DNA of 64,000 bases from Candidatus Poriferihabitaceae bacterium (GTDB lineage: Bacteria; Pseudomonadota; Gammaproteobacteria; Arenicellales; Poriferihabitantaceae). The translations under genes were made by a program, and so were the position numbers. Under the pieces are notes generated by a model, which saw only the letters and a list, made by a program, of their open reading frames with translations, was not told where the DNA came from and did not search any database. Location: the NCBI GenBank assembly GCA_965249835.1, contig CBDFMY010000003.1:1249979-1313978 (forward strand), given 5' to 3'. Below, piece after piece: positions 2,712 through 42,632 of this stretch (position 1 is its first letter; every line of letters begins with the position of its first letter).

Positions 2712-2717
2712 CCCATC

Positions 2718-4052: not shown

Positions 4053-4238
4053 GGGTGTCGGTCGCCCGGTCGGAGCGTGTTATCGGCGGCATGTCTGCCC
4101 GGATACTATACTTAACTTCCCCCTTTCATTGCCCTTTACTTCACTGCGTTTGGGGATACAATCCGCCGACTTCGTCGAGTCGGGCGGGGATGCGTTATCT
4201 CGGGCGGGAAGCCGCAAGGTTTCCAGATTGGTCAATTT

Positions 4239-5567: not shown

Positions 5568-5621
5568 CGCACGCACGGATAACGGATTACCTTTTTGGAG
5601 TATGATTACGCGCAATAGAGG

Positions 5622-6557: not shown

Positions 6558-6580
6558 TTGGCATTCCTCGGCATCTCTCA

Positions 6581-14267: not shown

Positions 14268-14807
14268 GTGAAACATTTCCTTCTCATTGCCATGTTGTTC
14301 GCCAGCCCAATTCGTGCCGACCAGAACCTGCCGGTGCTGGACGAATTGTTTGCGTTGCTGAACGGTGCGCTTGAGGCGGAAACGGCGGTGGCGGTTACGC
14401 GAGAAATTTGGGCGGCGTGGTTGCAACACGATGATGAACAGGTGCGCGCGTTGATGGATGCCGGTATGCGCGACATGAATAGCCAACGCTGGCACGATGC
14501 GCTGGCGCAATTTGATGCGGTGATTGGTCGCGCGCCGGATTTTTCCGAGGCGTGGAACAAACGCGCAACGGTGTATTACCTGATGGGCGACTTCGCCGCA
14601 TCATCCGCCGATGTGGTCGAAACATTGCGCCTTGAGCCGCGCCATTTCGGTGCGCTTGCCGGGCAAGGGATGATGCACTTACAGGAAAAAAATTGGGAGT
14701 TGGCGTTGCTGTATTTTCGTCGTGCGCTGAGCGCAAACCCGCACATGGATAATATTCGGCAATATGTTGAATTGCTGTCGCGGATGCAGAAACAAAAGAC
14801 AATTTAG
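14268..14807 (+). CDS. Secreted TPR-repeat protein
   Basis: GTG start, signal peptide MKHFLLIAMLFASPIRA, TPR-like helices (AWNKRATVYYLMGDFAASSADVVETLRLEP). Confidence 0.65.
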   Translation: MKHFLLIAMLFASPIRADQNLPVLDELFALLNGALEAETAVAVTREIWAAWLQHDDEQVRALMDAGMRDMNSQRWHDALAQFDAVIGRAPDFSEAWNKRATVYYLMGDFAASSADVVETLRLEPRHFGALAGQGMMHLQEKNWELALLYFRRALSANPHMDNIRQYVELLSRMQKQKTI

Positions 14808-14857
14808 TTGCGTCGTATCCCTTTGGTCGGTTGCCTGATTTTATAAATGCTTTGCCA

Positions 14858-15286
14858 ATGCTCTTACCAATGCTCTGGATCAAATCTTTTCATATTCTAT
14901 TTATGGTTACCTGGTTCGCCGGGTTGTTTTATCTGCCGCGCCTGTATGTCTATCACGCTCAGGCAAGCGACCCGATTGGTATCGCGCGGTTCAAGGTAAT
15001 GGAGCGCAAACTTTTCTGGGGCATCATGACCCCAAGCGCGGTGCTGACCATCGGGTTCGGTGCGTGGCTGTGGACTATCTACGGATTTTCCGGGCGCTGG
15101 CTGGTGCTGAAGTTGTTATTGGTGGCGATGGTGATCGCTTATCACATCTGGTGCTACCTGAAACTCAACGATTTCCTCCACGACCGAAACCGTCACGGCT
15201 CGGTCTATTATCGCTGGATGAACGAAGCGCCGGTATTGCTACTCGCCGGAATTATTCTATTGGCGGTGGTCAAACCGCTCGGCTGA
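14858..15286 (+). CDS. hemJ: Protoporphyrinogen IX oxidase HemJ
   Basis: LWIKSFHILFMVTWFAGLFYLPRLYVYH is the HemJ signature. The ATG at 14858 is preferred to the TTG at 14831. Confidence 0.8.
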   Translation: MLLPMLWIKSFHILFMVTWFAGLFYLPRLYVYHAQASDPIGIARFKVMERKLFWGIMTPSAVLTIGFGAWLWTIYGFSGRWLVLKLLLVAMVIAYHIWCYLKLNDFLHDRNRHGSVYYRWMNEAPVLLLAGIILLAVVKPLG

Positions 15287-15294
15287 ATCGTTCG

Positions 15295-16335
15295 TTAGGA
15301 CGCGTGGTTATGTTCGGCTTTTGGATCCCGCGCCAGTAAATCCCGCACCGCGCTTTTGGGGTCGTGTCCCTGATGCAAAACTCGATACACCTGCTCGGTG
15401 ATGGGCATTTCCACGCCCAGTTCACGGCTCATCGAATAAAGTTCGCGGGCGGTGTTGATGCCTTCAATTGCCTGACCGATTTCCCGACACATGCGCTCGC
15501 GCGATTTGCCTTGCCCGATGCCTAGCCCGAAGCGTCGATTGCGCGATTGGTCATCGGTGCAGGTCAAGATTAAATCTCCGACCCCGGCCAGGCCGGTGAA
15601 GGTGTCGGCGCGGCCGCCGCGTGCGACCCCGAGCCGCGTCAGTTCGGCCAGGCCGCGCGTGATTAACGCGGCCCGGGCGTTGGCGCCAAAACCGAGACCG
15701 TCGCTGATTCCGGCGGCGATTGCCATGACGTTTTTAATCGCGCCGCCGAGTTGCACGCCGATCAGGTCATCGCTGAAATAAACCCGCGTGGTGGGGTTGC
15801 GAAACCAGTCAGCCAGCGATTCCGCGGTGCTTTGTTCGGCACATGCCAGGGTCAATGCGGTAGGCAGTCCACTCGCCATCTCGCCGGCGAAACTTGGCCC
15901 GGAGATGACCGTGTGCGCCGCGTGCGCACCGCCGCCAAAAATGTCATCCACCACTTCGCCGGGTAATTGCCCGCCGCGGTCGAAACCTTTGGTGCCCCAG
16001 ATCAGGGTGGCGGCATCTGCCGAATGTCCGGCGGCGATGATGCTGCGGTGAAGCGCGGTTAGCGTCTCGCGAAACGCGTGGCTGGGAACCGCCACCACGA
16101 AAGCAAGGTCATCGTTCGCCAAAGCATCAAAGTCAGTTTCGACTTTGAGGTTGGCCGGAAATTCCAGACCGGGCAGGTAGCGTTGATTGCAACGCCGCCG
16201 TGCCATCTCTTCCATTTGCGCGATGTTCCGACCCCACAGCCGCACATGGTTGATGTTGTCGGCCAGCGCCATCGCCAGTGCCGTGCCCCACGACCCGGCA
16301 CCGACCACGCAAACCGATTCCGGGAGGGTAGTCAT
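15295..16335 (-). CDS. gpsA: NAD(P)H-dependent glycerol-3-phosphate dehydrogenase
   Basis: VVGAGSWGTALA Rossmann motif, GAIKNV, full-length GpsA-like sequence; secB-gpsA synteny. Confidence 0.9.
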   Translation of the reverse strand: MTTLPESVCVVGAGSWGTALAMALADNINHVRLWGRNIAQMEEMARRRCNQRYLPGLEFPANLKVETDFDALANDDLAFVVAVPSHAFRETLTALHRSIIAAGHSADAATLIWGTKGFDRGGQLPGEVVDDIFGGGAHAAHTVISGPSFAGEMASGLPTALTLACAEQSTAESLADWFRNPTTRVYFSDDLIGVQLGGAIKNVMAIAAGISDGLGFGANARAALITRGLAELTRLGVARGGRADTFTGLAGVGDLILTCTDDQSRNRRFGLGIGQGKSRERMCREIGQAIEGINTARELYSMSRELGVEMPITEQVYRVLHQGHDPKSAVRDLLARDPKAEHNHAS

Positions 16336-16370
16336 GACCGAGCAAGCAGAAGGGCGCGAGACGCCCGGTT

Positions 16371-16901
16371 TTAGTTTGGCCGGGTTGCCCCGGAGGGCGG
16401 GGCGCTGCGCGCTTCCTTGGCTTTTTTCTGGTGGTATAACGCCTGAAAATTGATCGGACTGAGCAGCAGTTGCGGGAAGCCGCCCTTGGAAATCAGGCTT
16501 GCCATGGCCTCGCGCGCAAACGGAAGCAGGACATGCGGGCAGGCGGTTTCCAGTATCGCTTCGATGTTTGCGGCATCAATATTGGTGGCGGTACTCTGGG
16601 TGATTTGGAAAATGCCGGCTTGCTGAACTTCGGCGAGGAACAAGTTCTGTTTTTCGTGGGCGGCGGTCACGGTGGTGTTCAGCACCACCTCGTAAAAATC
16701 CTGACCCTCTTCGATGCGCTGGTGGGTCATGGTCATCTGCACATCCAGCGTCGGGTTGATTTCACCTTTGGCAAAAATCTGCGGGCTTGCCGGCGATTCA
16801 AACGAAGCGTCCTTTAAATACACCTTCTTCGCTTCGATGATCGAGCGATTGTTGGTGTGGCCGGGTCCGCTAGCCTGCGCGGGTTTTTCATTCTGGGACA
16901 T
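16371..16901 (-). CDS. secB: Protein-export chaperone SecB
   Basis: VYLKDASFESP...NPTLDVQM...CPHVLLPFAREAMASLISKGGFPQLLLSPINF. Confidence 0.9.
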   Translation of the reverse strand: MSQNEKPAQASGPGHTNNRSIIEAKKVYLKDASFESPASPQIFAKGEINPTLDVQMTMTHQRIEEGQDFYEVVLNTTVTAAHEKQNLFLAEVQQAGIFQITQSTATNIDAANIEAILETACPHVLLPFAREAMASLISKGGFPQLLLSPINFQALYHQKKAKEARSAPPSGATRPN

Positions 16902-16907
16902 GACGAA

Positions 16908-17342
16908 TCAGCCTTTTACCAGCGGCAGGTTTTCTTTTTTCCATGCGGCGAGGCCGCCCTCGAGAACATACAGTTGTTTGAATTCTTTGCCGCGCAGGAT
17001 GGACACCGCCTTGGCCGAGCGCGTGCCGTTCTGGCAGGCGATGATGATCGGTTTGTTTTTGTGTTTGTTGAGTTTGGAGATTTTGTCGTTGATTTGATCG
17101 AAGGGCAGGTTGATGGCTTGCTCAATGTGTCCTTTCTTAAATGCCTCCGCCTCGCACACATCCACCACCACCGCGGACTCGCGGTTTTGCAGTTTTGGCA
17201 ATTGCAGGGGAGAAACTTTCTGCGCGTTGCCGCCGGGATTGAGCGACAGCAACAGCACAATCACCGCCAGCATCACGAACAAATACCAGTTCTGGGAAAC
17301 GAATTCGAGAATCATTAACTTGAGTTTGGAGCGCCTGCGCAA
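16908..17342 (-). CDS. Membrane-anchored rhodanese-domain protein (YibN-like)
   Basis: N-terminal TM helix; rhodanese active-site loop ACQNGTRS; position upstream of secB as yibN in E. coli. Confidence 0.75.
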   Translation of the reverse strand: MRRRSKLKLMILEFVSQNWYLFVMLAVIVLLLSLNPGGNAQKVSPLQLPKLQNRESAVVVDVCEAEAFKKGHIEQAINLPFDQINDKISKLNKHKNKPIIIACQNGTRSAKAVSILRGKEFKQLYVLEGGLAAWKKENLPLVKG

Positions 17343-17626
17343 AGCGGCGATTCTACCCCAACGGCGTAGTCGCTGACAACCGAGCGGATTATAATTTCGC
17401 TCATTTCACCGCGGTGTTTCGGTCAAAACCGGCGAAGGAATCGGCGAAGTGGGTTCCACCGGTGGCTTGCCCGCCCCGGCTTGTATTTCGAAATCCGACA
17501 CAATAATGGTGAACCCCAGTGGTGAACCATGGGTCCGCCGGAATGGTGCCGGATGTAGTTGCGGCGGCTGCCTTTTCCACCCACTGCGCATCGCATCGTT
17601 GCAAATTTGGGTATAGTATTCTCCTG

Positions 17627-18985
17627 ATGAAACTGAAATCTATTTTGCCGCTGCCGCTATTCCTGCTATTGAGCGGGTTGCTGTTTGGCAGCGTAACTTT
17701 CGCCGATGACACGAAATCTGGCGAGCAGCCGTTGCCGCTGGATGAACTGCGGTTATTCACCGAGGTGTTCGGAAAAATAAAAAGCGCATATGTCGACAAG
17801 GCAGATGATGAGACGCTGTTGCGGGATGCGATTCAGGGTATGCTGGCGGGGCTTGATCCACATTCGTTTTTTCTGGATGCGGAAGCGTTTCGCGAGATGC
17901 GGATGTCCAGCGAAGGAAAGTTCAACGGGCTTGGTCTGGAAATCGCCATTGAAGACGGGCTCATCCGGGTAATCGCGCCCATTGATGACACGCCGGCCCA
18001 GCGTGCCGGTATTCAGCCCGGCGACCTGATTATCATGCTGGACGGCGTGTCGGCACAGGGTATGGGGTTGCCGGATGCGCTGGAAGGCATGCGCGGCCCG
18101 CCGGGTTCGGAAGTGGTTCTGACCATTTCCCGCGGCGACAACGAAGTGTTTGATGTTAAGTTGGTGCGCGCCCTCATCGAGGTGGCCGAGGTCAAAAGCG
18201 AAATGCTCGAAGCCGGATTCGGCTACATTCGCATCGCCAGTTTCCAGAACGACACCGGCGCGAACTTGCGCGATGGCATCGAACAACTGGAACAGCAAAA
18301 CGGCGGCGCGCTCAAAGGTCTGGTGCTGGACTTGCGCAACAATCCCGGGGGCGTGTTGCATGGTGCGGCGGATGTCAGCGATGCGTTTCTCAACTCCGGG
18401 CTGATCGTATCCACCCGCGGGCGCAACGCCGATGCCAACCATAGTTTCCGCGCAACCAGCGATGACCTGATCGATGATGCGCCGGTGGTGGTGCTGGTCA
18501 ATGGCGGTTCCGCATCGGCATCAGAAATCGTTGCCGGTGCGTTGCAGGATCACAAGCGTGCGATCATCATGGGAACGCGCACCTTCGGCAAGGGCTCGGT
18601 GCAGACTGTGATTCCTATCGACAACGGCGGCGCATTGAAACTCACCACGGCGCGCTACTACACGCCATCCAACCGCTCAATTCAGGCGCGGGGCATCGTC
18701 CCCGACATCATCATTGAAGCGCGGGAGCCAGCCACAACCGAGCCGAGCGAGCGGGAAATCCGCGAGGCCGACCTGGCCGGTCATTTGCCAAACGACCGCG
18801 CCGGCGATGCCGCAGGCGATGATAAAACCGACTCCTCGGATTTGGCGAAGCGGGAGACGCGGGCCAAGAGGGATTACCAGGTGGGCGAAGCACTTAACCT
18901 ATTGAAGGGTATGAGTCTGGTGCGACTGCGCGGGCAAGAGGGCATTCAACCCGCCCCGGCGCCTGGCGTTTCCGGGGAAGGGTAG
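17627..18985 (+). CDS. Carboxy-terminal processing protease (S41 family)
   Basis: Signal peptide MKLKSILPLPLFLLLSGLLFGSVTFA; PDZ region (GIQPGDLIIMLDG); LDLRNNPGG, GSASASEI, TFGKGSVQ catalytic motifs. Confidence 0.85.
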   Translation: MKLKSILPLPLFLLLSGLLFGSVTFADDTKSGEQPLPLDELRLFTEVFGKIKSAYVDKADDETLLRDAIQGMLAGLDPHSFFLDAEAFREMRMSSEGKFNGLGLEIAIEDGLIRVIAPIDDTPAQRAGIQPGDLIIMLDGVSAQGMGLPDALEGMRGPPGSEVVLTISRGDNEVFDVKLVRALIEVAEVKSEMLEAGFGYIRIASFQNDTGANLRDGIEQLEQQNGGALKGLVLDLRNNPGGVLHGAADVSDAFLNSGLIVSTRGRNADANHSFRATSDDLIDDAPVVVLVNGGSASASEIVAGALQDHKRAIIMGTRTFGKGSVQTVIPIDNGGALKLTTARYYTPSNRSIQARGIVPDIIIEAREPATTEPSEREIREADLAGHLPNDRAGDAAGDDKTDSSDLAKRETRAKRDYQVGEALNLLKGMSLVRLRGQEGIQPAPAPGVSGEG

Positions 18986-32185: not shown

Positions 32186-33508
32186 ATGGACATGACCGTC
32201 GCCAGCCACGAGACCATCCTCGTCATTGGCGGCGGCATCAGTGGCATGACCACGGCGCTGGAAGCGGCCGAATGTGGCAAGCAGGTAATCTTGATTGAAA
32301 AAAATCCGGCACTCGGTGGGCGCGTATCGCAACTGCATCGCTACTTCCCCAAACTTTGTCGCCCGACTTGCGGGCAAGAAATTAATCTGCGGCGCATCAA
32401 GGCGAATAAATTTCTGCGCGTTTTGACCATGGCCGAAATCACCAGCCTTAGCGGCGAGGCCGGCAACTACACCGCGCACATTAAAATTCATCCGCGTTAT
32501 GTGAATGAAAACTGCACCGCTTGCGGCGCATGCGCACGCGCCGTGAGTGCGCAAATTGACGACCCGCATAATTACGGCATGGGGAAAATCAGTGCCGCGT
32601 ATTTGCCCAACAACATGGCGTATCCGCAACGTTATGTTCTCGACCGGTCCATTGTCGGCACCGAACAGGGCGAAGCCGCAAAAGCCGCGTGTCCGGTGGA
32701 TGCGATTGATTTGGAGATGCAAGAGAAGGAAATAGAAATCACTTGCGGCGCGGTGGTTTTTGCCACCGGCTGGCGACCATATGATGCGGCGCGCATTGAA
32801 CCATATGGATACGCACGCTATGCCGATGTCATCACCAGCGTTGAGTTCGAGCGCATGATGGATCCATTTGGCCCGACCGCGGGAAAATTAACCCGACCGT
32901 CCAACGGTGAGGACGCGAAAGACATCGCATTCATTCAATGCGCCGGTTCGCGTGACCGCAATCATCTCGCGCATTGTTCGCGCATCTGTTGCATGGCATC
33001 GCTGAAACAAGCCACTTACCTTGCAGAGCAATACGGCGATGACCAAGACGCGCGTGCGACCATCTATTATATTGATATCCGAACCATCGATCGCTTTGAA
33101 GATTTTGAACGACAAGTGCGCGCCGATGCGCGCGTGCATTTTATTAAATCCAAAGTCGCCAGCATCGAGCAGGACGCGGACGGCAAACCGCTGCTGATCG
33201 GCGTTGACACCCACGGCTATCACCGCTACCAAAACGCGCACGACCTGGTTGTGCTGGCGATCGGTATGACCCCCAGTGTTGACATCGCTGCGTTGCTGAA
33301 AACCAATCACGAGGTCGCGGTGGATGCCGGCGGATTTATCGAACTTGAGCAGATCAATGGCGCAGAGAATGACGACACGCATGGCGTGTTCGCGGCCGGC
33401 TGCGCGTCCAATCCGCTGGATGTAAATCGCTCGGTGCAAAGTGCCACCGCGGCGGCGTTGCGCGCCATTCAGGTAGTCAATCGCGTGTCCCGCGCGCAAA
33501 AAACATGA
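32186..33508 (+). CDS. qmoA: QmoA (HdrA-like FAD-dependent oxidoreductase of the Qmo complex)
   Basis: ILVIGGGISGMTTALEAAECGKQVILIEKNPALGGR dinucleotide motif; HdrA-like body; directly followed (ATGA overlap) by qmoB. Confidence 0.8.
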   Translation: MDMTVASHETILVIGGGISGMTTALEAAECGKQVILIEKNPALGGRVSQLHRYFPKLCRPTCGQEINLRRIKANKFLRVLTMAEITSLSGEAGNYTAHIKIHPRYVNENCTACGACARAVSAQIDDPHNYGMGKISAAYLPNNMAYPQRYVLDRSIVGTEQGEAAKAACPVDAIDLEMQEKEIEITCGAVVFATGWRPYDAARIEPYGYARYADVITSVEFERMMDPFGPTAGKLTRPSNGEDAKDIAFIQCAGSRDRNHLAHCSRICCMASLKQATYLAEQYGDDQDARATIYYIDIRTIDRFEDFERQVRADARVHFIKSKVASIEQDADGKPLLIGVDTHGYHRYQNAHDLVVLAIGMTPSVDIAALLKTNHEVAVDAGGFIELEQINGAENDDTHGVFAAGCASNPLDVNRSVQSATAAALRAIQVVNRVSRAQKT

Positions 33509-35811
33509 ACGACTCAACGATAAAACTCGGCGCGTATTTGTGCAAAGGCTGCGGCTTGGGCGAGCGTCTTGATACGGATAAATTGGCCACGGTCGCCGAA
33601 CAAAGCGGCGCGACCACGGTCAAGACGCATGATTATTTGTGCAGTGCCGACGGCGTCGCCACTATCCGCGATGACATCGAAAACCAACAAGTCACCCATG
33701 TCGTCATCGGTGCTTGCTCGCGCCGCGCCAAAACCGAAGCGTTTGGTTTTGACGAAGCATCACACGAATCACATGGCGCGGCGGTGGCGCGGGCGAATTT
33801 GCGCGAAGGCGTGATTTGGACGCAACCGGATACGCCGGATGCGCGCGAGACCACCCAGGAGATGGCGGATGATTATGTGCGCATGGCATGCACCGAAGCG
33901 AAGTTCATGCAGTTGCCGAAAGCCGATGCCGAGAGCGCTGCCAACAAGCGCATTCTGGTGGTCGGCGGCGGCGTCAGCGGCATGACCGCGGCATGGCAAT
34001 CGGCGCGCGCCGGCTATGCGGTTTTGCTGGTGGAAAAAAGCCCCGCGCTCGGCGGCTGGGCGCGTTCGTTGCATCGTTGTCTGCCGCGCACCGAGCCACA
34101 TGCGCAACCGGTGCACAATGACATCGCGCAACTCATCAAGGCGGTGGAAGATCACGCTAGTATCACGGTGTTTTTGAATGCCACCGTAGCCAAAACCAGC
34201 GGTGCACCGGGGCGTTTTTCGGTGGACATTGCGAGTGGCCGCACCACCGTTACCGAGAACATCGGCGGCATCGTGCAAGCCAGTGGTTTCAGTCGGTACG
34301 ATGCCAACCGCCTGCCGGAATTTTCCTACGGCAAAACTCCGGATGTGATCGACCAAACCGAGTTGGAGGCACTGGCGGTCAAAGCCGGCGACAATGGCGG
34401 CAATGGTGGCAATGGCGGAGTGATAACGCGCCCCTCCAACGGCAAACCGGTTAACAGCGTGGTGTTCGTGCAGTGCGCCGGCCAACGCTCGCAAAAGCCC
34501 GGACATCTGCCATATTGCTCCGGTTATTGTTGCAACGTAAGCATCAAGCAGGCGATGTATTTCAAGGAGCAAAACCCCGACATTGATACCAATGTGATTT
34601 ATTCCGACCTGCGCACGCCCGGCAACGGCGAGGATTTTTATCGTGCGGCGCAACAGCAAGGCGTGGTGTTCACCAACGGCGAGGTGGCCTCGGTTGTGCC
34701 TGATGCCGAACAGTTGGCGGTGCATTTTCGCGATCATATCTTGCACCAAGACGCGGTCGCGCACGCCGATCTGGTGGTGCTGGCAACCGGGCAAGTGCCG
34801 AATTCGGGGGTGGATATCGAGGCCGACAATGACGCCGGGGATGCCGAGGGCAAGAGTGCCGAGGGTAGCGCCGAAAATAAAAAACCCGGCGAGGTCAGGG
34901 TTTCGGTGGAGTCCATTCTCAATCTCGATTACCGTCAGGGTCCCGACCTGCCGCATTTGAAACACGGCTTCAGCGATTCGCATTTCATCTGTTTCCCATA
35001 TGAGACGCGCCGCACCGGCATTTACGCGTGCGGTCCGGTGCGCCGCCCGATGGACATTCAGCAATCCATTGAAGATGCCACCGGCGCAGCGATGAAGGCG
35101 ATTCAATCGGTCGAAGCCGCCAACTTCGGGCGTGCCGCGCATCCGCGTGTCGGCGATTTGTCCTATCCGAGTTTCCGCAAGGACGGCTGCACCCAGTGTA
35201 AGCGTTGCACCGTGGAATGTCCGTTCGGCGCCATCGACGAAGATGAAAACGGCTATCCGCAGTTCAACGAATCGCGCTGCCGGCGTTGCGGCACTTGCAT
35301 GGGCGCGTGTCCGGTGCGCGTGATTTCGTTTGAAAATTATTCGGTGGACACCGTCGGCCAGCAAATCAAAGCCATTGAAATGCCCGATGAATTCGACGAG
35401 AAGCCGCGCATCCTGATTCTCGCTTGTGAAAACGATGCCTATCCGGCGCTGGATATGGCGGCGCACAACCGCATCCAATACAACGCCTTCGTGCGCGTGA
35501 TTCCGATTCGCTGCCTGGGTTCGGTGAATTTGATCTGGGTGACCGATGCGATTAACTCCGGCTTTGACGGCATCATGATGATGGGCTGCAAAAAGGGTGA
35601 TGACTATCAATGTCACTTCGTGCGCGGTTCCGAGTTGGCGCACGAGCGCATGAGCAAGATTGACGACACCTTAACGCAATTGCAACTGGAAACCGAGCGC
35701 GTGCAAACGTTTGAAGTGGAAATCACTGACATTGAACGCGTGCCGAAACTGATTAACGACTACGCCGAAAAAATAGACGCGCTCGGCATGAATCCGTTCA
35801 AAGGGTTTTGA
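33505..35811 (+). CDS. qmoB: QmoB (HdrA-like flavoprotein with 2x[4Fe-4S] and C-terminal MvhD-like domain)
   Basis: ILVVGGGVSGMTAAWQSA; ferredoxin motifs CTQCKRCTVECP and CRRCGTCMGACP; C-terminal ILACENDAYP...IPIRCLGSVN (MvhD/FlpD-like). Confidence 0.85.
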   Translation: MNDSTIKLGAYLCKGCGLGERLDTDKLATVAEQSGATTVKTHDYLCSADGVATIRDDIENQQVTHVVIGACSRRAKTEAFGFDEASHESHGAAVARANLREGVIWTQPDTPDARETTQEMADDYVRMACTEAKFMQLPKADAESAANKRILVVGGGVSGMTAAWQSARAGYAVLLVEKSPALGGWARSLHRCLPRTEPHAQPVHNDIAQLIKAVEDHASITVFLNATVAKTSGAPGRFSVDIASGRTTVTENIGGIVQASGFSRYDANRLPEFSYGKTPDVIDQTELEALAVKAGDNGGNGGNGGVITRPSNGKPVNSVVFVQCAGQRSQKPGHLPYCSGYCCNVSIKQAMYFKEQNPDIDTNVIYSDLRTPGNGEDFYRAAQQQGVVFTNGEVASVVPDAEQLAVHFRDHILHQDAVAHADLVVLATGQVPNSGVDIEADNDAGDAEGKSAEGSAENKKPGEVRVSVESILNLDYRQGPDLPHLKHGFSDSHFICFPYETRRTGIYACGPVRRPMDIQQSIEDATGAAMKAIQSVEAANFGRAAHPRVGDLSYPSFRKDGCTQCKRCTVECPFGAIDEDENGYPQFNESRCRRCGTCMGACPVRVISFENYSVDTVGQQIKAIEMPDEFDEKPRILILACENDAYPALDMAAHNRIQYNAFVRVIPIRCLGSVNLIWVTDAINSGFDGIMMMGCKKGDDYQCHFVRGSELAHERMSKIDDTLTQLQLETERVQTFEVEITDIERVPKLINDYAEKIDALGMNPFKGF
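35481..35811 (+). repeat. 331-bp direct repeat, copy 1 (native 3' end of qmoB)
   Basis: Matches 37536-37866 at 329 of 331 positions (differences at 35553 and 35559, both synonymous). Confidence 0.95.
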
Positions 35812-35905
35812 TAGTACTCTGAAGATTTCGGCACGGAATCAGTTTGCAATCCCATGAAAGAAACTATAGTGTTCATAACTAGGTGATTTCAACCAACCCA
35901 ATTTT

Positions 35906-36808
35906 ATGTATCAGCGACCGGCATCCACTCTTTCCACATTTGCCGAAGCAAATGTCAGGCAAGCCGATATTTTTCAGGCTGACGGGACGGACGTTTGCAG
36001 TGAGAAATTTGTGGGTTGCAGTATTGACCAGTATTATACCAAACCTGAAATAGTTTCGATCTGTTTGCGCGAATTGGGCAGGTTGTCCGAGTTTGATTGC
36101 GTGATTGAACCTAGTGCCGGCGATGGTGCATTTTTTTCCAAGATTAAGCATAGCAACTTAATAGGATTGGATATTACTCCGCATCATCCAGCGATTAAAA
36201 AAGCAAACTGGCTGACTTACAAAATAGACAGCGCATACAAAAAAGTGGTGGTGGTGGGTAACCCGCCATTTGGCAGATTTAATAATTTGTCCGCGGCATT
36301 TATCCAACATGCATTAAAATTCCCCGCAGTTTCGTGCATCGGTTTTATTTTGCCCGATGTGTATAACAAACATACCCGACAAGCGATACTGCCAAGCCAT
36401 TGGCGCATTAAAACGAACCATAAATTGCCGCGCAATGCGTTTTTGTATGAAGGAGAAACCCAACATGTGCCATGTTCGTTTTTTGTGTTTTGTCGGTCAC
36501 AGGGCAAGGATTTGCGTGTACCGACCAAATTGCCGAACATTGCGGATTTTAGCTTTTCCAATTGCAAAGATTACGATGTGTTTATTTTTGGTGCTGCACC
36601 AAAAAATATATTACGGCAGGGGGAAGTTAAGAAAAATAATCGCGGGCATTTTCTGAAATCACATATTGATGTTAATCGGTTAATTGCCAACTTAAACGCG
36701 GTGGTTTGGCAAGGCAACTCATGTGCAAGCGGCGGTGTGTATTGGCTGACCAAAAATGAATTGGCGATGCAGTATTATCACAGACACACGATTGGGCCAA
36801 AACCATGA
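35906..36808 (+). CDS. Gamma-class N6-adenine DNA methyltransferase (compact, 300 aa)
   Basis: Order QYYTKPEIV (motif X), VIEPSAGDGAFF (motif I), VVVGNPPFG (motif IV NPPF). AT-rich. Confidence 0.8.
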   Translation: MYQRPASTLSTFAEANVRQADIFQADGTDVCSEKFVGCSIDQYYTKPEIVSICLRELGRLSEFDCVIEPSAGDGAFFSKIKHSNLIGLDITPHHPAIKKANWLTYKIDSAYKKVVVVGNPPFGRFNNLSAAFIQHALKFPAVSCIGFILPDVYNKHTRQAILPSHWRIKTNHKLPRNAFLYEGETQHVPCSFFVFCRSQGKDLRVPTKLPNIADFSFSNCKDYDVFIFGAAPKNILRQGEVKKNNRGHFLKSHIDVNRLIANLNAVVWQGNSCASGGVYWLTKNELAMQYYHRHTIGPKP

Positions 36809-37395
36809 AATTAACAAGACAAGACAAAAGAGACATGAGGTCATTGGCAACGACTGTTTATGAAAGCCAAGCAAAGTCCAGTGTTTTGGTGATGCGAGTC
36901 AAAGATAAATTAATAGCGGCCGAACTTACCGGAGTAGTAACCGCGGTGGAATTTTATCGAATCACTGCATTGATGAGCACTCAAATGCGCGCGCCGTTAT
37001 GGGAAAAATATTTTATTGAAAAACATGGATTTAATCGGGTTCAACCCGCTGAAAACCAAGGTGATATGGAAAAAAACGGAAATTACTACGAATATAAGGC
37101 ATCTGGATTTAACGCCAAAAATGAATTGAGACTCCTCCAAATTCGGCATTGGCAAAATTGCGATTACATATTCCAATTTATATCCGGCGAAGGGGCAGAC
37201 ACATTTTGCCTTACCAAAAAACAAATGAAAGTCGAAATGAAAATCAATAAAGCTCACCCGGCACATGGCACAAAGACAGTCAATTTAAATAATAAAATGG
37301 TGGAATACATGATGACTGTGAAGAGAGAAAGAATGAATGATGTTTGGATGAAAAAGTATTTTGTTGCAGACCCGTTACAGATAGGCGTTGTCTGA
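36805..37395 (+). CDS. Hypothetical protein, candidate PD-(D/E)xK restriction endonuclease partner
   Basis: The start overlaps the MTase stop (ATGA). GDMEKNGNYYEYKAS gives D-x9-E-x-K spacing. 196 aa, AT-rich. No recognisable family otherwise. Confidence 0.45.
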   Translation: MKLTRQDKRDMRSLATTVYESQAKSSVLVMRVKDKLIAAELTGVVTAVEFYRITALMSTQMRAPLWEKYFIEKHGFNRVQPAENQGDMEKNGNYYEYKASGFNAKNELRLLQIRHWQNCDYIFQFISGEGADTFCLTKKQMKVEMKINKAHPAHGTKTVNLNNKMVEYMMTVKRERMNDVWMKKYFVADPLQIGVV

Positions 37396-37512
37396 TATTA
37401 AATTACAAAGACGATTTTTCATTACAAAAATAACTGCTCCAACCATGTCCGGTATCCGCCCACAAGTCGGTATAATTGACGGAATTCGGAAAATCTCCAA
37501 TCAATCGCCCCA

Positions 37513-37866
37513 ATGAATCCAATCGAAAAATATCGCAACGCCTTCGTGCGCGTGATTCCGATTCGCTGCCTGGGTTCGGTGAATTTGATCTGGGTGACCG
37601 ATGCGATCAACTCTGGCTTTGACGGCATCATGATGATGGGCTGCAAAAAGGGTGATGACTATCAATGTCACTTCGTGCGCGGTTCCGAGTTGGCGCACGA
37701 GCGCATGAGCAAGATTGACGACACCTTAACGCAATTGCAACTGGAAACCGAGCGCGTGCAAACGTTTGAAGTGGAAATCACTGACATTGAACGCGTGCCG
37801 AAACTGATTAACGACTACGCCGAAAAAATAGACGCGCTCGGCATGAATCCGTTCAAAGGGTTTTGA
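37513..37866 (+). pseudogene. Chimeric fragment: hdrC-like start (MNPIEKYRN) fused to a duplicate of the last 110 codons of qmoB
   Basis: From 37536 on it is identical (2 synonymous changes) to the qmoB 3' end. 37513-37539 (ATGAATCCAATCGAAAAATATCGCAAC) resembles the hdrC start ATGAACTCC...GAAAAATACCGCAAC at 39220. Confidence 0.8.
37536..37866 (+). repeat. 331-bp direct repeat, copy 2
   Basis: See copy 1; offset is exactly 2055 bp. Confidence 0.95.
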
Positions 37867-38018
37867 GCGTGATTATATTTGGCATGTTGTTTTTAATTGT
37901 GGTGATATTCGCATCTATATCTGCTATCTTTGTATGCCACCACCTTCTTGGTCGCATTCTGGCCGTTTAGTATATTGCTCTCATTATTAGAAATCGCTGT
38001 CAATCAAGTGTTTGAACA

Positions 38019-39218
38019 ATGAATCTGCAAATTCCCAACCGCGCATTATTCACCGGCGACAACCTGCCGATTTTGCGCGGCATAAACTGCGACAGCGTTG
38101 ATTTGATTTACCTCGACCCACCGTTCAACTCCAACAAAGAATACTCGGCAGTGGAAGGAAGCGAAGCGGCCGGCGCGTCTTTCAAGGATGCGTGGACGCT
38201 TTCGGATGAAGATGAATCGTGGCACGCCGCGTTGAAATCGCATCATCCGAAGTTATACGCGATCATTCATGTGGCCGGTGCGGTTGGTGACTCCGGCGAC
38301 AAATCGTATTTGATTTACATGGCGGTTCGCATTTTGGAATTGCGCCGCATTATGAAAAACACCAGTAGCATTTATTTGCATATCGACCCGACCATGAGTC
38401 ACAGTCTGAAGTTGGTGATGGATGCGATTTTTGGCAATGGCGGATTTGTTAATGAGATTATCTGGTATTACAAAAACGCATCGCGTGGCAAAAAACGTTT
38501 TGCCAAAAGCCACGATGTGATTTTATGGTATGCAAAGGGCGCGCCGCAGTTTAACCGTGATGATGTGCTGACACCGTTTGCAAGCGGCATGACCAAATGG
38601 CGTTATACGCATGGCGGTCAGCGCGGCAATCCCATTCCAAAAGGAAAAACGCCGGATGATGTGTTTGAGATTCCCGCGTTGAATGCCATGGCAAAGGAGC
38701 GCATGGGTTACCCGACGCAAAAACCGCTGGCGTTGCTGAATCGCATCATCAAGGCGAGCAGCAACGAGGGCGACACCGTGCTCGATCCGTTTTGCGGTTG
38801 CGCCACCACTTGCGTTGCGGCGGAAGTGTTACACCGCAAATGGATTGGTATTGATATCAGCCCGAAGGCGTTGGAGTTGGTGAAGACGCGGCTCGGCCGG
38901 GAAGTGCTCGGTGAGGGCAAAGTGTTCAAGGGCGAAGTCGTTCATCGCACCGACATCCCGCATCGTATCGATATTCCGCGCATCACACTGTCGGACACCG
39001 AAATTCGCAAAAGGTTATATGGCAACCAGGCCGGGCTATGCAATGGTTGCGGATTTCATTTTCCCATTCAGAACTTTGAGCGCGATCACATTGTCCCGCC
39101 CTGCCAAGGCGGTGCCGATATAATGGAAAACTTTCAATTGCTGTGCGGTAACTGCAATCGCGTCAAAGGCAATCGCACCATGGAATATTTGAAAGCGCGC
39201 CTTCTCGAGAAACAATAA
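38019..39218 (+). CDS. Beta-class DNA methyltransferase fused to a C-terminal HNH endonuclease domain
   Basis: IYLDPPFNSN (motif IV) then DPFCGCATTCVAAE (motif I) and PTQKP. The C-terminal 70 aa read CNGCG...FERDHIVPPCQGG...NFQLLCGNCNRVKGN (HNH with a Cys4 zinc pattern). Confidence 0.85.
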   Translation: MNLQIPNRALFTGDNLPILRGINCDSVDLIYLDPPFNSNKEYSAVEGSEAAGASFKDAWTLSDEDESWHAALKSHHPKLYAIIHVAGAVGDSGDKSYLIYMAVRILELRRIMKNTSSIYLHIDPTMSHSLKLVMDAIFGNGGFVNEIIWYYKNASRGKKRFAKSHDVILWYAKGAPQFNRDDVLTPFASGMTKWRYTHGGQRGNPIPKGKTPDDVFEIPALNAMAKERMGYPTQKPLALLNRIIKASSNEGDTVLDPFCGCATTCVAAEVLHRKWIGIDISPKALELVKTRLGREVLGEGKVFKGEVVHRTDIPHRIDIPRITLSDTEIRKRLYGNQAGLCNGCGFHFPIQNFERDHIVPPCQGGADIMENFQLLCGNCNRVKGNRTMEYLKARLLEKQ

Positions 39219-39219
39219 A

Positions 39220-39852
39220 ATGAACTCCGCCAACACATCCGCCGTGGAAAAATACCGCAACCAGTTCCTGCGCGAGGTCGAAGCCAATGTCGAGGACGGC
39301 GAGTGGGTGAAGATGTGCATGCAGTGCGGGGTGTGTTCCGGCTCGTGTCCGCTGGGGAGTGCGTGGGCGCATCCGCCGCAGGAATTGTTTATGATGATTC
39401 GCGCCGGGCAACGCGACGAAGTGCTCAGATCGGAGTCCATGTGGATGTGCACTTCCTGTTACAACTGCGTCACGCGTTGCCCGCGCGGGCTGCCGATTAC
39501 GCACATCATGCACGGCTTGGCGAACTACGCCAACCGCCTCGGGATCGCGCCGAAGATGAATCCGACCAAACGTTTTGCGAAAATATTTTGGGACAACATC
39601 GCCGACACCGGACGCGTGAATGAATCGAAACTGTCGATAAAACTGTATTTTATGAACGGTTTGATGAGCGGCATAAAAACCGCGTTCGGCATGCGCAAGG
39701 TCGGTTTGGGTATGCTTCGAACCGGACGACTGAATCCGCTTGGGTTTTTCCGCGCCGGCGGTATCAAAGAAAAAAATCAGTTACGACAGATGTTGAAAAA
39801 GGCGCATGAAATTGAAGACAAACGCAGAGGGCTGAAACAGCCCGGAGGATAA
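39220..39852 (+). CDS. hdrC: Heterodisulfide reductase subunit C-like iron-sulfur protein
   Basis: CMQCGVCSGSCP and CTSCYNCVTRCP 4Fe-4S motifs. The ATG lies 1 nt after the preceding stop. Confidence 0.85.
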   Translation: MNSANTSAVEKYRNQFLREVEANVEDGEWVKMCMQCGVCSGSCPLGSAWAHPPQELFMMIRAGQRDEVLRSESMWMCTSCYNCVTRCPRGLPITHIMHGLANYANRLGIAPKMNPTKRFAKIFWDNIADTGRVNESKLSIKLYFMNGLMSGIKTAFGMRKVGLGMLRTGRLNPLGFFRAGGIKEKNQLRQMLKKAHEIEDKRRGLKQPGG

Positions 39853-39856
39853 CGCA

Positions 39857-40771
39857 ATGGCACGAAAAGAATATTCCTTTTATCCGGGCTGCTCATCTGA
39901 GCGCAAGTCCTCGGCATCCAACTACATGGTATCGGTCAATACCATGTGCAAGACGCTGGATATTAAACTAAACGAGATTCCCGACTGGAATTGCTGCGGC
40001 GCGTCCATCGGTTATGCCGACGGCGGCGAGTTGCCGCGTCATGTGATGAACGCACGCAACGTGGCGTTGTCGCAACAACATAACAAAGGGCAGGACATCG
40101 TCGCCACTTGCGCGGCCTGCTGGCTTGGCGCGAAAGAATCGGTGGAGCGGTTGTCTAAGTCCGAGCAATTGCTCGCCGACACGCAAAGTATTCTTGCCGA
40201 TGTCGGGTTGAAAGTGGACATCGATGAAAAAACCGCGAGCAGCGTGCGTCACATGGTCGAAGTATTGATCGAGGATTTTGGCTACGATGAACTCGCGGCA
40301 CCGGTCAAAAAACCGTTGGAAGGATTAAAGATCGCCGGTTATGTCGGTTGCCAGACCAACCGCCCGTTCGGCATAGACGGCGAGTCTTTTGAAAATCCAA
40401 AATATCTGGACAAGATGGTGGAAATTATGGGTGCTGAGCCGGCCGAAAAATACGAACAAAAGGTCACCTGCTGCGGCGGCGCGCTGGCGTTTTCGGAGCC
40501 GGAAAAAAGCCAGGCGCAAATCAAGGACATTGTTGAATCAGCCTACGACCACAATGCCGACATGATCGTCACGCCGTGTCCGGTGTGTCAGATGAATGTT
40601 GAAGTGTATCAGGAGCAAATCAACAAAACCTACGGCAAAAATTTCAACATGCCGGTGGTGTATTATAGCCAGTTGATGTCGGTCGCCTATGGTAGCACCG
40701 CCAAACAAGCGGGCCTGGACGGGCAGGTGATACGCACGAAGAAACTGGAGGAGATTGCGGCAAAAAAGTGA
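39857..40771 (+). CDS. hdrB: Heterodisulfide reductase subunit B-like (CCG-domain) protein
   Basis: FYPGCS...NCCG and GCQTNRP...TCCGG...PCPVCQ (two CCG domains). GGAGG lies 7 nt upstream of the ATG. Confidence 0.85.
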   Translation: MARKEYSFYPGCSSERKSSASNYMVSVNTMCKTLDIKLNEIPDWNCCGASIGYADGGELPRHVMNARNVALSQQHNKGQDIVATCAACWLGAKESVERLSKSEQLLADTQSILADVGLKVDIDEKTASSVRHMVEVLIEDFGYDELAAPVKKPLEGLKIAGYVGCQTNRPFGIDGESFENPKYLDKMVEIMGAEPAEKYEQKVTCCGGALAFSEPEKSQAQIKDIVESAYDHNADMIVTPCPVCQMNVEVYQEQINKTYGKNFNMPVVYYSQLMSVAYGSTAKQAGLDGQVIRTKKLEEIAAKK

Positions 40772-40993
40772 GTGGTCGGCGTGTGGCGACTTGACAAAAG
40801 TAATCCAATGGATTGCGAGGCGCGGCGAATCGTGGGAAGATGCGAGTGATGAAAACGGCAATCCAGTTGGTCGCGCCAGTTGGTCTTGATTTAGGGATTA
40901 CTGTGGGCAACTCGGTGTGATTTTTGTCGGGCATCTGTGCTAATGAATTGGCCAAACTAACGAATCTGCTCGTTAAAAACCACGGAGAAAGCG

Positions 40994-41189
40994 ATGTCTG
41001 AATCTTTCGACAGCATCAAGCGGGGTTTCACCGAAGCGGTTCGGTATTCCGCAGGCAAACGCGTGCAAGCGATTGTCCATGAGTCTGCACCGATTGATGT
41101 GAAAAACACTCGCGCTACTCTTAAAATAAGTCAAGTTGAATGTGGTGGCAAAAAAGCCAAAGGCGGTGCTGGATGCGCTTGCGCGGTGA
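40994..41189 (+). pseudogene. Internally deleted/frameshifted XRE-type antitoxin-like gene
   Basis: The N-terminal MSESFDSIKRGFTEAVRYSAGKRVQAIVHESAPIDVKNTRATLKISQVE matches the common leader of HTH antitoxins. The HTH core is missing. A C-terminal-like LNVVAKKPKAVLDALAR* is readable in the +1 frame ending at 41189. Confidence 0.5.
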
Positions 41190-41226
41190 GCCGGTGCAAA
41201 TCAAAACTCGCAAGAGAGACGTTTTT

Positions 41227-41367
41227 ATGAGTGGAAAAGTAATGAGTGCTTGGGATAGAGTGGAAATCACAACAGACATATACCTTGGCGATAGCAAAGA
41301 TCAACTGAAATCGCTTCCAAGCGATTCTGTCGATCTCATCATTACATCGTCCCTTAGGCAAGAGTAA
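41227..41367 (+). pseudogene. N-terminal stub of a DNA methyltransferase, truncated at motif IV
   Basis: IYLGDSKDQLKSLPSDSVDLIITS is followed by SLRQE* where (S/D)PPY is expected. Confidence 0.6.
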
Positions 41368-41392
41368 AGCGAATAGCGACCATTATTTTAGG

Positions 41393-42359
41393 ATGAACAT
41401 ACAAAATAAAAAGCCCGGAGTGAAAATGAGTTATGAAGGCAGGATGCTTGAGGATTACAATATGCCGGATCGTGATGAGGTTGCGAAGGTCTTGCTAATA
41501 ATGCTTTTTAGACATGGTGGCACAGTCAGAGAGTTTTCAATCGACGAAGCAGTAGTCACGGAAGTCGCTGACAATTTCGGCCTTACCAAAAATCAAAAAG
41601 ATGTTGTTCTTGAGAGAATTTACAAAAAAGAAAACAGAACTGTGCGAACACCTTTGTGGCACAGATTATTGTATAGGGCGGGCGATATATTAGCGAAAGA
41701 AAAATTGGTTACGCGCCCAACAAAAACTTTGAGGCTCACAAATAAAAGAGAATGAATGTTAACCGAGAAAGGATATGACAAGGCCTTGGATCTTCTAAAC
41801 ATTCCATCCGACTACAAATCTGAATTACCAATCAAGCCATATGAAGTCCAAAAAATAGTCGAAAGCATTTCTGCACAATTAAAACCAGAGAGTTATAATC
41901 CTTTCAATAAAAGAAAAAAAAACAAAAATCACAACGAAAAAATCTATTATGAGAAACAGAGGATTCAGACAAGCAATAATTAATGTTTATGATTACAAAT
42001 GTTGTGTTTGCGGGTTGAAGTTGCGTTCACCCGATAAATTACGATGGGAAGTGCAAGCCGCGCACATAGTTCCTCATAGATATTTTGGAAGAGACGATAT
42101 ATGGAATGGGTTGGCATTATGCCAATTGCATCATTGGGCTTTTGATGTAGGACTATTTAGTTGTGATGGGAATTTTAAAGTAGTGTCTTTAATGGAATCA
42201 CAATCCTTAGGAAGTGATTACGGTATGATATTTGGTTATGATTTTTTGGATCATTTAAAGTCTGGCAGATGTTTCTTGAAGTTGCCAAAAGCAGCAAAGC
42301 ATTATCCGGATATGGCTGCTATAAATTGGCACAGAACTAACATTTATAATGGCAGGTAA
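41393..42359 (+). pseudogene. Disrupted HNH (HNH_2-type) restriction-endonuclease-like gene in three pieces
   Basis: Three abutting ORFs: 41393-41755, 41756-41983, 41949-42359. The first ends ...LRLTNKRE* and is followed directly by MLTEKG. There is a frameshift between YYEKQRIQTSNN* and MRNRGFRQAII. The last piece carries CCVCG...AAHIVPH...NGLALCQLHHWAFDVG. Confidence 0.55.
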
Positions 42360-42568
42360 TGGCCATCGGTATGGAAAATCACTTAATCAACCAACTAATC
42401 TACCAGTTAGATGAAGACGATGCGCAACAAGTTGCTATGGGAAGTCTCGGAAGATATCTTATTAAGAATGAATTGACCGCATTAAAAGATAAAATTTGCG
42501 AAAAGATAGATTGGCATGAAGCGATTGATTCTGCTATATCCGATATAACATCGTCCGAAGCGTCCTGA
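42359..42568 (+). CDS. Hypothetical acidic protein (69 aa)
   Basis: The ATG overlaps the preceding TAA (TAATG). AT-rich. No family recognised. Confidence 0.3.
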   Translation: MAIGMENHLINQLIYQLDEDDAQQVAMGSLGRYLIKNELTALKDKICEKIDWHEAIDSAISDITSSEAS

Positions 42569-42632
42569 AACGCGTGGAGCTTCGCTTCATCCAAAGTAAA
42601 TTAATATTCCTGAAATTCACCGAACCGAGCAG

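Follow-up and report, generated by a model that had tools for sequence, protein, structure and literature searches.

The 64,000-nt stretch of Candidatus Poriferihabitaceae DNA analysed here (the window) carries a qmoAB-hdrCB operon in which the 3' end of qmoB occurs a second time downstream of the gene, fused to a short 5' fragment of hdrC, and in which two different methyltransferase (MTase) cassettes lie between qmoB and hdrC. Coordinates are positions in the window unless another locus is named, and every listed feature is on the + strand. The gene names and the order qmoB, cassette 1, joint, cassette 2, hdrC, as given in an earlier note on this DNA, were upheld by Pfam and NCBIfam. The composite was present in three assemblies: the window, contig L081 (ERZ25069810, 821 kb, from another sample, about 92.5% identical in nucleotide sequence, with the same gene order) and contig L168 (ERZ26167708, 2.8 Mb, from a third sample, 98.6% identical, with the same order and a 117-aa open reading frame (ORF) at the joint). 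The features of the locus are as follows.

32186–33508, + strand: qmoA, 440 aa, matching Pfam FAD/NAD-binding families and an NCBIfam HdrA-like model
33505–35811, + strand: qmoB, complete, 768 aa, with a C-terminal FlpD/MvhD domain at residues 636–761 (Pfam FlpD, 1.3e-38; Fer4; FAD domains)
35481–35811, + strand: copy 1 of the direct repeat, 331 bp, the qmoB 3' end including its stop codon (repeat search, pairwise alignment, base checks)
35812–35905, + strand: IG1, the left flank of cassette 1, homologous in contig L085 and identical at 94 of 94 positions in L081 and L168
35906–36808, + strand: MT1, the cassette 1 methyltransferase, 300 aa, predicted Type II gamma-order amino-MTase (PADLOC, AlphaFold2 (AF2) model)
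36805–37395, + strand: ORF196, the cassette 1 restriction-endonuclease-like protein, 196 aa, with a 4-nt ATGA overlap with the MT1 stop
37396–37512, + strand: IG2, the spacer from cassette 1 to the hdrC' start, common to L081 and L168
37513–37539, + strand: hdrC', the hdrC 5' fragment encoding MNPIEKYRN, whose last four nucleotides, CAAC, overlap copy 2 of the repeat
37536–37866, + strand: copy 2 of the direct repeat, a qmoB 3' relic, which with hdrC' gives the chimeric ORF 37513–37866
37867–38018, + strand: IG3, an AT-rich spacer of 152 nt particular to the window/L168 lineage
38019–39218, + strand: cassette 2, an N6_N4 DNA methyltransferase fused to a C-terminal HNH nuclease (MTase-HNH), 399 aa (Pfam, PADLOC)
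39220–39852, + strand: hdrC, 210 aa, starting 1 nt past the cassette 2 stop (Pfam, NCBIfam)
39857–40771, + strand: hdrB, 304 aa, with two Pfam CCG domains and an NCBIfam HdrB-like match

The two copies of the 331 bp repeat are spaced by 2055 bp, with 1724 bp separating them, and are 99.4% identical. A repeat search, a pairwise alignment and a base-by-base check all confirmed this repeat, which had been reported in the earlier note, and they confirmed that the two mismatches (35553 T/C and 35559 C/T) are the only ones, both at third codon positions and synonymous. A repeat of this length and identity cannot be due to chance. On the left side, identity begins with the CAAC (35480 A versus 37535 G), and on the right side it ends exactly with the TGA of qmoB (35812 T versus 37867 G). 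Such a right edge is expected if the homology between alleles ends where the differing cassettes start. The joint, ATGAATCCAATCGAAAAATATCGCAAC, covers positions 37513–37539 and opens the chimeric ORF of 117 aa, whose residues 10–117 repeat the final 108 residues of QmoB without a change. This ORF matched Pfam FlpD (2.3e-29) over profile positions 27–123 only.

The earlier note had asked for assembly collapse or chimerism to be excluded. In a chimera, haplotypes of two strains with different cassettes would have been merged by way of the qmoB 3' sequence that they share. Such an accident would be helped by the near identity of the repeat copies and by the fact that strains with alternative cassettes do exist, and the arrangement was judged from assembled contigs. 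However, the hdrC'::qmoB joint is a novel sequence that goes beyond a simple mixture of haplotypes. The same architecture lies on the 0.82-Mb and 2.8-Mb contigs from other samples, in one of them with a different joint position, and an identical 117-aa ORF is found on a 1.9-Mb NCBI/ENA contig. The composite is not an assembly artefact, since it occurs in two further assemblies from other samples, and the probability left to a chimera is negligible.

The usual state of the qmoB-hdrC junction was deduced from relatives collected by a QmoB scan with one genome per species, which gave 80 loci, 79 of them with both genes on the retrieved sequence. The nearest relatives (QmoB 70–76% identical in amino acids) were sponge-associated gammaproteobacteria, namely Ca. 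Spongiihabitans thiooxidans (76%) and metagenome-assembled genomes of Poriferihabitaceae. The gene order, the HdrA-like flavoproteins, the MvhD/FlpD domain on QmoB, the HdrC ferredoxin and the CCG domains of HdrB identify a QmoAB-HdrCB module. An adjacent qmoAB-hdrBC arrangement was described in a sponge symbiont, as a module of sulfur oxidisers (PMC10356861). The order qmoA-qmoB-hdrC-hdrB recurred in the 80 loci. In all 79 loci qmoB was followed by hdrC, with hdrB next wherever the contig reached, and in 74 of them no more than 50 nt separated the qmoB stop from the hdrC start.

Among the 80 loci an occupied slot was confined to the sponge-associated group, and in rough neighbour-joining trees the loci with an occupied slot formed one subclade. 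In L002 and L005 an orthologue of the MTase-HNH gene (67% and 71% aa identity, respectively) was situated directly behind qmoB and was followed by hdrC, cassette 1 being absent. The slot of L005 also held a gene for a HAD-family hydrolase after the MTase-HNH gene (positions 5986–6708 of that locus). The slot of L007 held an unrelated ORF of 244 aa (2320–3054) with a hydrophobic N-terminus and no Pfam match, and L003 showed a spacer of 121 nt. Neither a second QmoB C-terminus nor cassette 1 was found in the 80 loci, and the spacers of L001, L003 and L004 contained no remnant of either cassette. The normally tight qmoB-hdrC junction is thus a variable slot with two alternative occupants in this clade. 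Integrase-free defence hotspots between core genes behave in this way, with varying defence cargo or none between the same conserved genes.

Contigs L085 and L081 were reached by a search for MT1 homologues, outside the 80 loci. The 3.5-kb contig L085 carries qmoB (71% aa identity), a homologous IG1, an MT1 homologue (72–76% aa), a truncated nuclease gene and hdrC, and its IG1 falls inside one contiguous alignment to the window at 75.6% identity. This layout corresponds to the allele with cassette 1 only that had been foreseen in the earlier note, where alternative occupants and empty sites were expected at this position. With L002 and L005 for cassette 2 and the short gaps of most relatives, all these states were observed. 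The L085 nuclease gene (3103–3354) was truncated after codon 77 by a deletion between two GGATTTAA(T/C) repeats (encoding G-F-N), with the loss of the D...ExK catalytic region, so that the methylase is now an orphan.

The N-terminus of HdrC proved to be well conserved. A motif of the xxYRNxFL type was present in 71 of the 79 loci, EKYRN in 27 and IEKYRN in 6, for a consensus (V/I)EKYRN(N/D)FL, and the joint of the window reads MNPIEKYRN. The L081 joint keeps two more hdrC codons, reading MNPIEKYRNDF before the QmoB sequence. The hdrC gene of L085 starts with ATGAATACCATTGAAAAATACCGCAAC, encoding MNTIEKYRN (longer extracts MPMNTIEKYRNNFL and ATGAATACCATTGAAAAATACCGCAACAACTTCCTG (MNTIEKYRNNFL)), with the same short leader as the joint. 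This leader of three residues before IEKYRN was seen only in the hdrC of L085 and in the joint, while the real hdrC of the window and those of the genomes with cassette 2 have 8–9 residues before (V/I/T)EKYRN. As MNPIEKYRN begins with an ATG, lies exactly at the repeat edge and matches a conserved HdrC motif, the resemblance is not due to chance. The 27 nt located 5' of copy 2 are a genuine hdrC 5' end, as had been proposed from the window alone and as the motif in relatives, the L085 leader and the L081 extension now show.

The two joints map to a short motif that occurs twice in the qmoB 3' end.

35488–35497, + strand: qmoB microhomology site 1, TTCGTGCGCG, codons F-V-R, where the window/L168 joint maps
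35617–35626, + strand: qmoB microhomology site 2, TTCGTGCGCG, codons F-V-R, where the L081 joint maps

The hdrC counterpart, TTCCTGCGCG, lies at 39265–39274 right after the YRNx codons and encodes F-L-R. In a pattern scan of the 32–41 kb interval, TTC[CG]TGCGCG was found only at 35488 and 35617, in their copies and at 39265, always in codon phase 0. Sites 1 and 2 are 129 nt (43 codons) apart. Site 1 with the preceding CAACG matched the inferred hdrC' at 14 of 17 positions, and site 2 at 9 of 10. The L081 joint reads ATGAATCCAATCGAAAAATATCGCAACGAT-TTCGTGCGCG-GTGCC, with AACGAT before the site. Its copy 2 is only about 196 nt long, and its chimeric ORF encodes 74 aa devoid of the Cys motifs. The two forms differ in that the window has AACGCC, which is qmoB sequence, and L081 has AACGAT, in agreement with the N-D-F of the HdrC consensus. 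Both joint types are in frame because the microhomology shares its codon phase, and selection is not needed to explain it.

This last point bears on the possibility that selection maintains the chimeric ORF as a new functional gene for a stand-alone MvhD-like iron-sulfur protein. In three genomes the ORF keeps its frame behind a start codon taken from hdrC, and its FlpD match is strong (the 2.3e-29 given above), but the in-frame state is automatic, the first 26 positions of the domain are missing, and the Cys-containing segments are gone from the 74-aa L081 version. Changes private to copy 2 were also seen, R to C in L168 and D to G in L081. A functional gene is thus highly improbable. Copy 2 with its chimeric ORF is a non-functional scar, a relic rather than a conserved gene, as follows from the missing start of the FlpD domain and from the shortened L081 version. 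Two FlpD-only ORFs retrieved elsewhere, P0132 and P0124, were considered as further joints and discarded: they derive from a frameshifted qmoB in a noisy long-read assembly and the slot is empty. In ERZ21861969 (L082, 1–1024, and L083, 8275–10513) frameshifts split qmoB into two or three called genes, and the resulting FlpD-only proteins mimic duplication joints in protein searches.

The spacers on both sides of the scar were also compared. IG3 was absent in L081, whose MTase-HNH gene begins 8 nt past the stop, and in L002, with a gap of 1 nt. An ORF in IG3 (37884–37970) encodes a strongly hydrophobic peptide of 28 aa, MLFLIVVIFASISAIFVCHHLLGRILAV. It may represent a small membrane or toxin-like product, or may have arisen by chance in AT-rich DNA. 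IG2 did not resemble the 3' end of the MTase-HNH gene, so there is no sign that cassette 2 was formerly present in the first unit. In L168, at 5696–5912 (near window position 37433, in IG2), an insertion of about 225 nt resembles a miniature inverted-repeat transposable element. It is bounded by terminal inverted repeats of 24 nt without a mismatch, GGGAATAACATACATAAATCCACA, and 8 nt of the target, AAAAATAA, are duplicated. No copy of this element was found in the window with up to 3 mismatches allowed.

Cassette 1 is predicted to be a complete, small and mobile Type II restriction–modification (R-M) pair, made of a methyltransferase and a PD-(D/E)XK nuclease. MT1 matched the PADLOC MTase_II model (1.2e-31), with a weak profile match to M.TaqI and no Pfam or NCBIfam match. 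Its motif I (EPSAGDGAF) precedes motif IV (NPPF), and its AF2 model shows a Rossmann fold of the S-adenosylmethionine-dependent MTases, the nearest structures being N6-adenine MTases. The family of ORF196 has 16 members, located on contigs matching in length those of the MT1 homologues, and G86-D87...E96-Y97-K98 are invariant. The AF2 model of ORF196 (predicted local distance difference test score of 90) had as best Protein Data Bank fold matches the restriction endonucleases NhoI, DpnI and PvuII (E 6.5e-4, template modelling score 0.5–0.6). The earlier description of cassette 1 as a gamma-MTase with a 196-aa ORF therefore stands for the MTase and is refined for its partner, which is restriction-endonuclease-like. 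The two genes are adjacent and co-oriented, overlap by 4 nt (ATGA, 36805–36808) and co-occur in unrelated genomes, as expected of a Type II R-M gene pair. The pair adjoins rplU in one unrelated genome (L084), and MT1 was found alone in other contexts. No recombinase domain was detected with Pfam or NCBIfam in any ORF of 35812–39218, so the locus does not qualify as an integrase-mediated genomic island.

Cassette 2 matched Pfam N6_N4_Mtase (1e-47) and HNH (1e-10) as well as PADLOC MTase_II, and has no similarity to cassette 1. Homologues of the MTase-HNH protein were found in 80 metagenome loci, 33 full-length ones among them, and never beside qmoB or hdrC, which makes the qmoB-hdrC location specific to this clade. 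Full-length fusions of this kind are widespread in other metagenomes. Unrelated metagenome contigs (L093, at 1866–5730, L091 and L114) carry two or three diverged MTase-HNH paralogues in tandem. An inverted repeat of 23 nt (I1, 36425–36447 and 38469–38491, 21 of 23 positions complementary) joins the MT1 and MTase-HNH genes. Both of its arms are identical in L081 and L168, and arm B is absent in L002 and L005. A comparable match was obtained in 1 of 30 codon-block shuffles, and I1 was set aside as probably a chance match.

The two cassettes differ in their relation to the surrounding operon. The GC content was 57–60% in the qmo genes and 36–44% in cassette 1, with cassette 2 between. At third codon positions (GC3) it was 0.40–0.44 in cassette 1 (MT1 0.44), 0.61 in the MTase-HNH gene and 0.63–0.70 in the operon genes. 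Between the window and L081 the synonymous divergence (dS) was 0.08 for MT1 and 0.06 for ORF196, compared to 0.26 for qmoA, 0.25 for qmoB, 0.22 for the MTase-HNH gene, 0.30 for hdrC and 0.31 for hdrB. The synonymous sites of cassette 1 have thus diverged 3–4 times less than those of the operon and of cassette 2. The trend was alike for L168, with 7 differences in the 1724 nt of cassette 1 and 80 in the 6047 nt of the operon and cassette 2. The ratio is similar in the two genome comparisons and may reflect recent lateral spread, fewer recombination imports, or both. The dS of cassette 2 equals that of the operon, so cassette 2 co-diverged with it and is a long-term, host-like resident of the slot. 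The low dS of cassette 1 means that its copies share a more recent common ancestor than the surrounding chromosome, by later arrival or by spread. This supports a direction in which the cassette 2 allele would have been the recipient and cassette 1 the incoming partner, and it suggests that cassette 1, probably together with the joint, may have spread among related lineages by recombination.

These values also bear on the idea that the composite is ancestral in the clade and that the alleles with a single cassette derive from it, by recombination at the qmoB 3' repeats or between hdrC' and hdrC. A deletion between the repeats gives the exact L002/L005 arrangement, a deletion between hdrC' and hdrC gives an hdrC with the short MN(P/T)IEKYRN leader as in L085, and the loci with an occupied slot are grouped in one subclade. 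However, the 3–4 times lower dS and the foreign GC3 of cassette 1 indicate that it is younger than the lineage split and not ancestral. In addition, L085 lacks IG2, which such a deletion would keep, and for the origin of the joint the same microhomology-mediated event would have to be assumed in any case. An ancestral composite is therefore unlikely, though it is the strongest of the rival explanations.

Over the 195 nt shared by the repeat copies, the comparison of the window with L081 showed 7 sites with a within-genome pattern and none with an orthologous pattern. The likeness of the copies within each genome, seen also in L168, fits gene conversion and fits equally well a recent or independent formation from the host's own qmoB. 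A joint older than the lineage split, followed by concerted evolution, is weakened by the dS result.

The closest known counterpart is the R-M "insertion with long target duplication" (PMC2853133, Furuta, Abe and Kobayashi 2010; the type is also in Nobusato et al. 2000). In the cases described there the repeats reach about 400 bp (417/423, 388/397) and often extend across a stop codon, the target gene is left intact, insertions into operon-like structures are reported, related genomes have an empty site, and the mechanism was left open (PMC2853133). The present locus likewise has an R-M pair, no mobility genes, long direct repeats of host sequence and relatives with an empty site. The insert contains homologues of M and R genes (MT1 and ORF196), is far smaller than the 20 kb limit used in 2010 (1724 bp) and has no mobility gene, only the MTase and nuclease ORFs having homologues. 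The repeats exceed 30 bp (331 bp), and the qmoB 3' end is single in L002, L005 and the other relatives of the QmoB scan. Unlike those insertions, the present one ends on its right side in a piece of hdrC, the gene downstream of the slot, which implies that the duplicated unit is the whole interval from the qmoB 3' end to the hdrC 5' end. The slot was already filled by a different methylase-nuclease gene, and the crossover microhomology is readable.

It could be argued that the R-M pair arrived as a free element lacking an integrase, which settled behind qmoB with a long target duplication of the Nobusato/Furuta type, and that the likeness to hdrC is a coincidence. The direct repeats of more than 30 bp, the lack of a mobility gene and the empty site in relatives agree with the published definition, and the pair is seen in unrelated contexts. 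On the other hand, a stretch of 9–11 residues, opening with an ATG and placed exactly at the repeat edge, agrees with the conserved N-terminus of HdrC, L085 has the cassette directly before a real hdrC with that leader, and the position of the junction coincides with a microhomology that hdrC also contains. A coincidence of this kind is very improbable.

Two other known processes resemble the locus in part. Microhomology-mediated tandem duplication is a recognised process (for example bioRxiv 10.1101/2020.03.03.972455). The likeness lies in a head-to-tail segment bounded by short near-identical ends, TTCGTGCGCG in qmoB and TTCCTGCGCG in hdrC, with one copy at the joint. The difference lies in the units, which are not identical but carry MT1 and ORF196 in one case and the MTase-HNH gene in the other, as with two alleles as partners or a later replacement. 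In the allelic substitution of R-M systems, such as the E. coli hsd/ICR locus (PMC2853133), the same pair of core genes also flanks differing cargo or none, the exchange occurring presumably by homologous recombination in the flanks. Here, in contrast, the flanks are translationally adjacent genes of one energy-metabolism operon, and the two alleles stand side by side instead of being swapped.

We propose that recombination in a sulfur-oxidising gammaproteobacterium with sponge-symbiont relatives left this locus as a scar in its qmoAB-hdrCB operon, an explanation that we consider probable. The starting point would be an allele with cassette 1 only, in which the R-M pair preceded an hdrC that had the short leader MN(P/T)IEKYRN. 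Illegitimate crossing over at the in-phase TTC(G/C)TGCGCG would then have joined the hdrC 5' end (F-L-R) to the qmoB 3' end (F-V-R). This might have occurred as a microhomology-mediated tandem duplication of the interval from the qmoB 3' end to the hdrC 5' end, combined with an allelic exchange of cassettes. Alternatively, the interval of a cassette 1 allele, circularised at the microhomology, may have entered a cassette 2 allele by Campbell-type integration. In Campbell-type integration, or homology-facilitated illegitimate recombination, one homologous anchor and one microhomology join produce direct repeats of the anchor. A qmoB 3' anchor and a microhomology join would yield exactly the present product, with the difference that a circular intermediate or transformation is not observable and the mechanism is deduced from the end product alone. 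Either way the product would be qmoB, cassette 1, hdrC'::qmoB-3', cassette 2 and hdrC, with a full qmoB and an intact hdrC. The tandem duplication or Campbell-type origin suggested in the earlier note is thereby supported and refined by the microhomology. The order of the steps, the physical intermediate and an ongoing exchange or gene conversion between the repeats are what we infer from this product.

This hypothesis implies that alleles with cassette 1 only should exist with the hdrC start ATGAATCCAATCGAAAAATATCGCAACGATTTCCTGCGCG and with IG2 before it, and that the repeats should favour the loss of exactly 2055 bp, giving an allele of the L002 type. The persistence of the repeat would be explained most simply by post-segregational killing by the R-M pair, which may disfavour this loss, as established R-M biology would suggest.

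Several points weigh against the proposal. The two units hold different cassettes, so a lone tandem duplication is insufficient and an allelic replacement or a heterologous partner is needed. A donor genome with the exact hdrC' was not found, and a metagenome scan with the back-translated MNPIEKYRN gave 0 matches. The contig L085 is short, its QmoB is only about 71% identical in amino acids, its nuclease gene and pre-hdrC spacer are partly deleted, and IG2 is untraceable there. Neither joint form comes from the other by a simple deletion between the 10-nt repeats. It is possible that an L081-like joint came first and was turned into the window form when copy 1 served as the template for a homology-guided extension or conversion, that both forms derive from a site 1 joint that still had the GAT, or that two joints formed independently; the data agree with a single origin followed by conversion or extension as well as with two formations. 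Finally, the expression and enzymatic activity of both cassettes, and the excision, are putative.

A bolder version, which we regard as tentative and rather doubtful, is that cassette 1 and the hdrC'::qmoB-3' joint form a self-propagating, integrase-free R-M unit, which would loop out between the qmoB 3' repeats and re-enter at the conserved qmoB 3' end of related genomes. A "virus-like" life cycle of R-M systems was hypothesised by Kobayashi's group and never documented (PMC2853133). If the idea were true, this unit would be a natural instance of such a cycle, the joint would preserve the mechanism of "long target duplication" as a microhomology-mediated crossover between allelic loci, and the 3–4-fold lower dS of cassette 1 in two genome comparisons would be a trace of its spread.

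Scans for promoters and terminators stayed at chance level, and Rfam gave no match in the window. Exact-sequence look-ups of the joint ORF, the MTase-HNH protein and ORF196 of the window found nothing on record. Directly 3' of hdrB, at 40772–42632, the window shows a second variable island of low GC content (32–44%) with small ORFs, one of which has an HNH_2 domain (41949–42359). In L081 the corresponding island (14600–18370) holds DUF1902, an N6_N4 methylase, an EcoO109I-type restriction enzyme and TraT. With this island beside hdrB, the operon is flanked by another slot for defence genes.

As to novelty, a limited literature search found no published description of R-M genes inside qmoAB-hdrCB, in agreement with the earlier note, but R-M insertions with long repeats spanning a stop codon are known, in operons included (PMC2853133). 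The locus is a well-documented case of a known class of R-M-linked rearrangement and not a new kind of system. What is new is the readable junction, with its piece of the downstream gene and its microhomology, in a slot that was already occupied. Such a joint points to unequal or Campbell-type recombination between alleles, not to a staggered-cut insertion. For annotation, the 117-aa ORF that would be called a "hydrogenase iron-sulfur subunit" is a relic. A core sulfur-oxidation operon tolerates, and retains for a long time, 1.2–3.4 kb of methylase and nuclease genes between its subunit genes, which is of interest for the question of where reduced symbiont genomes harbour selfish defence genes.

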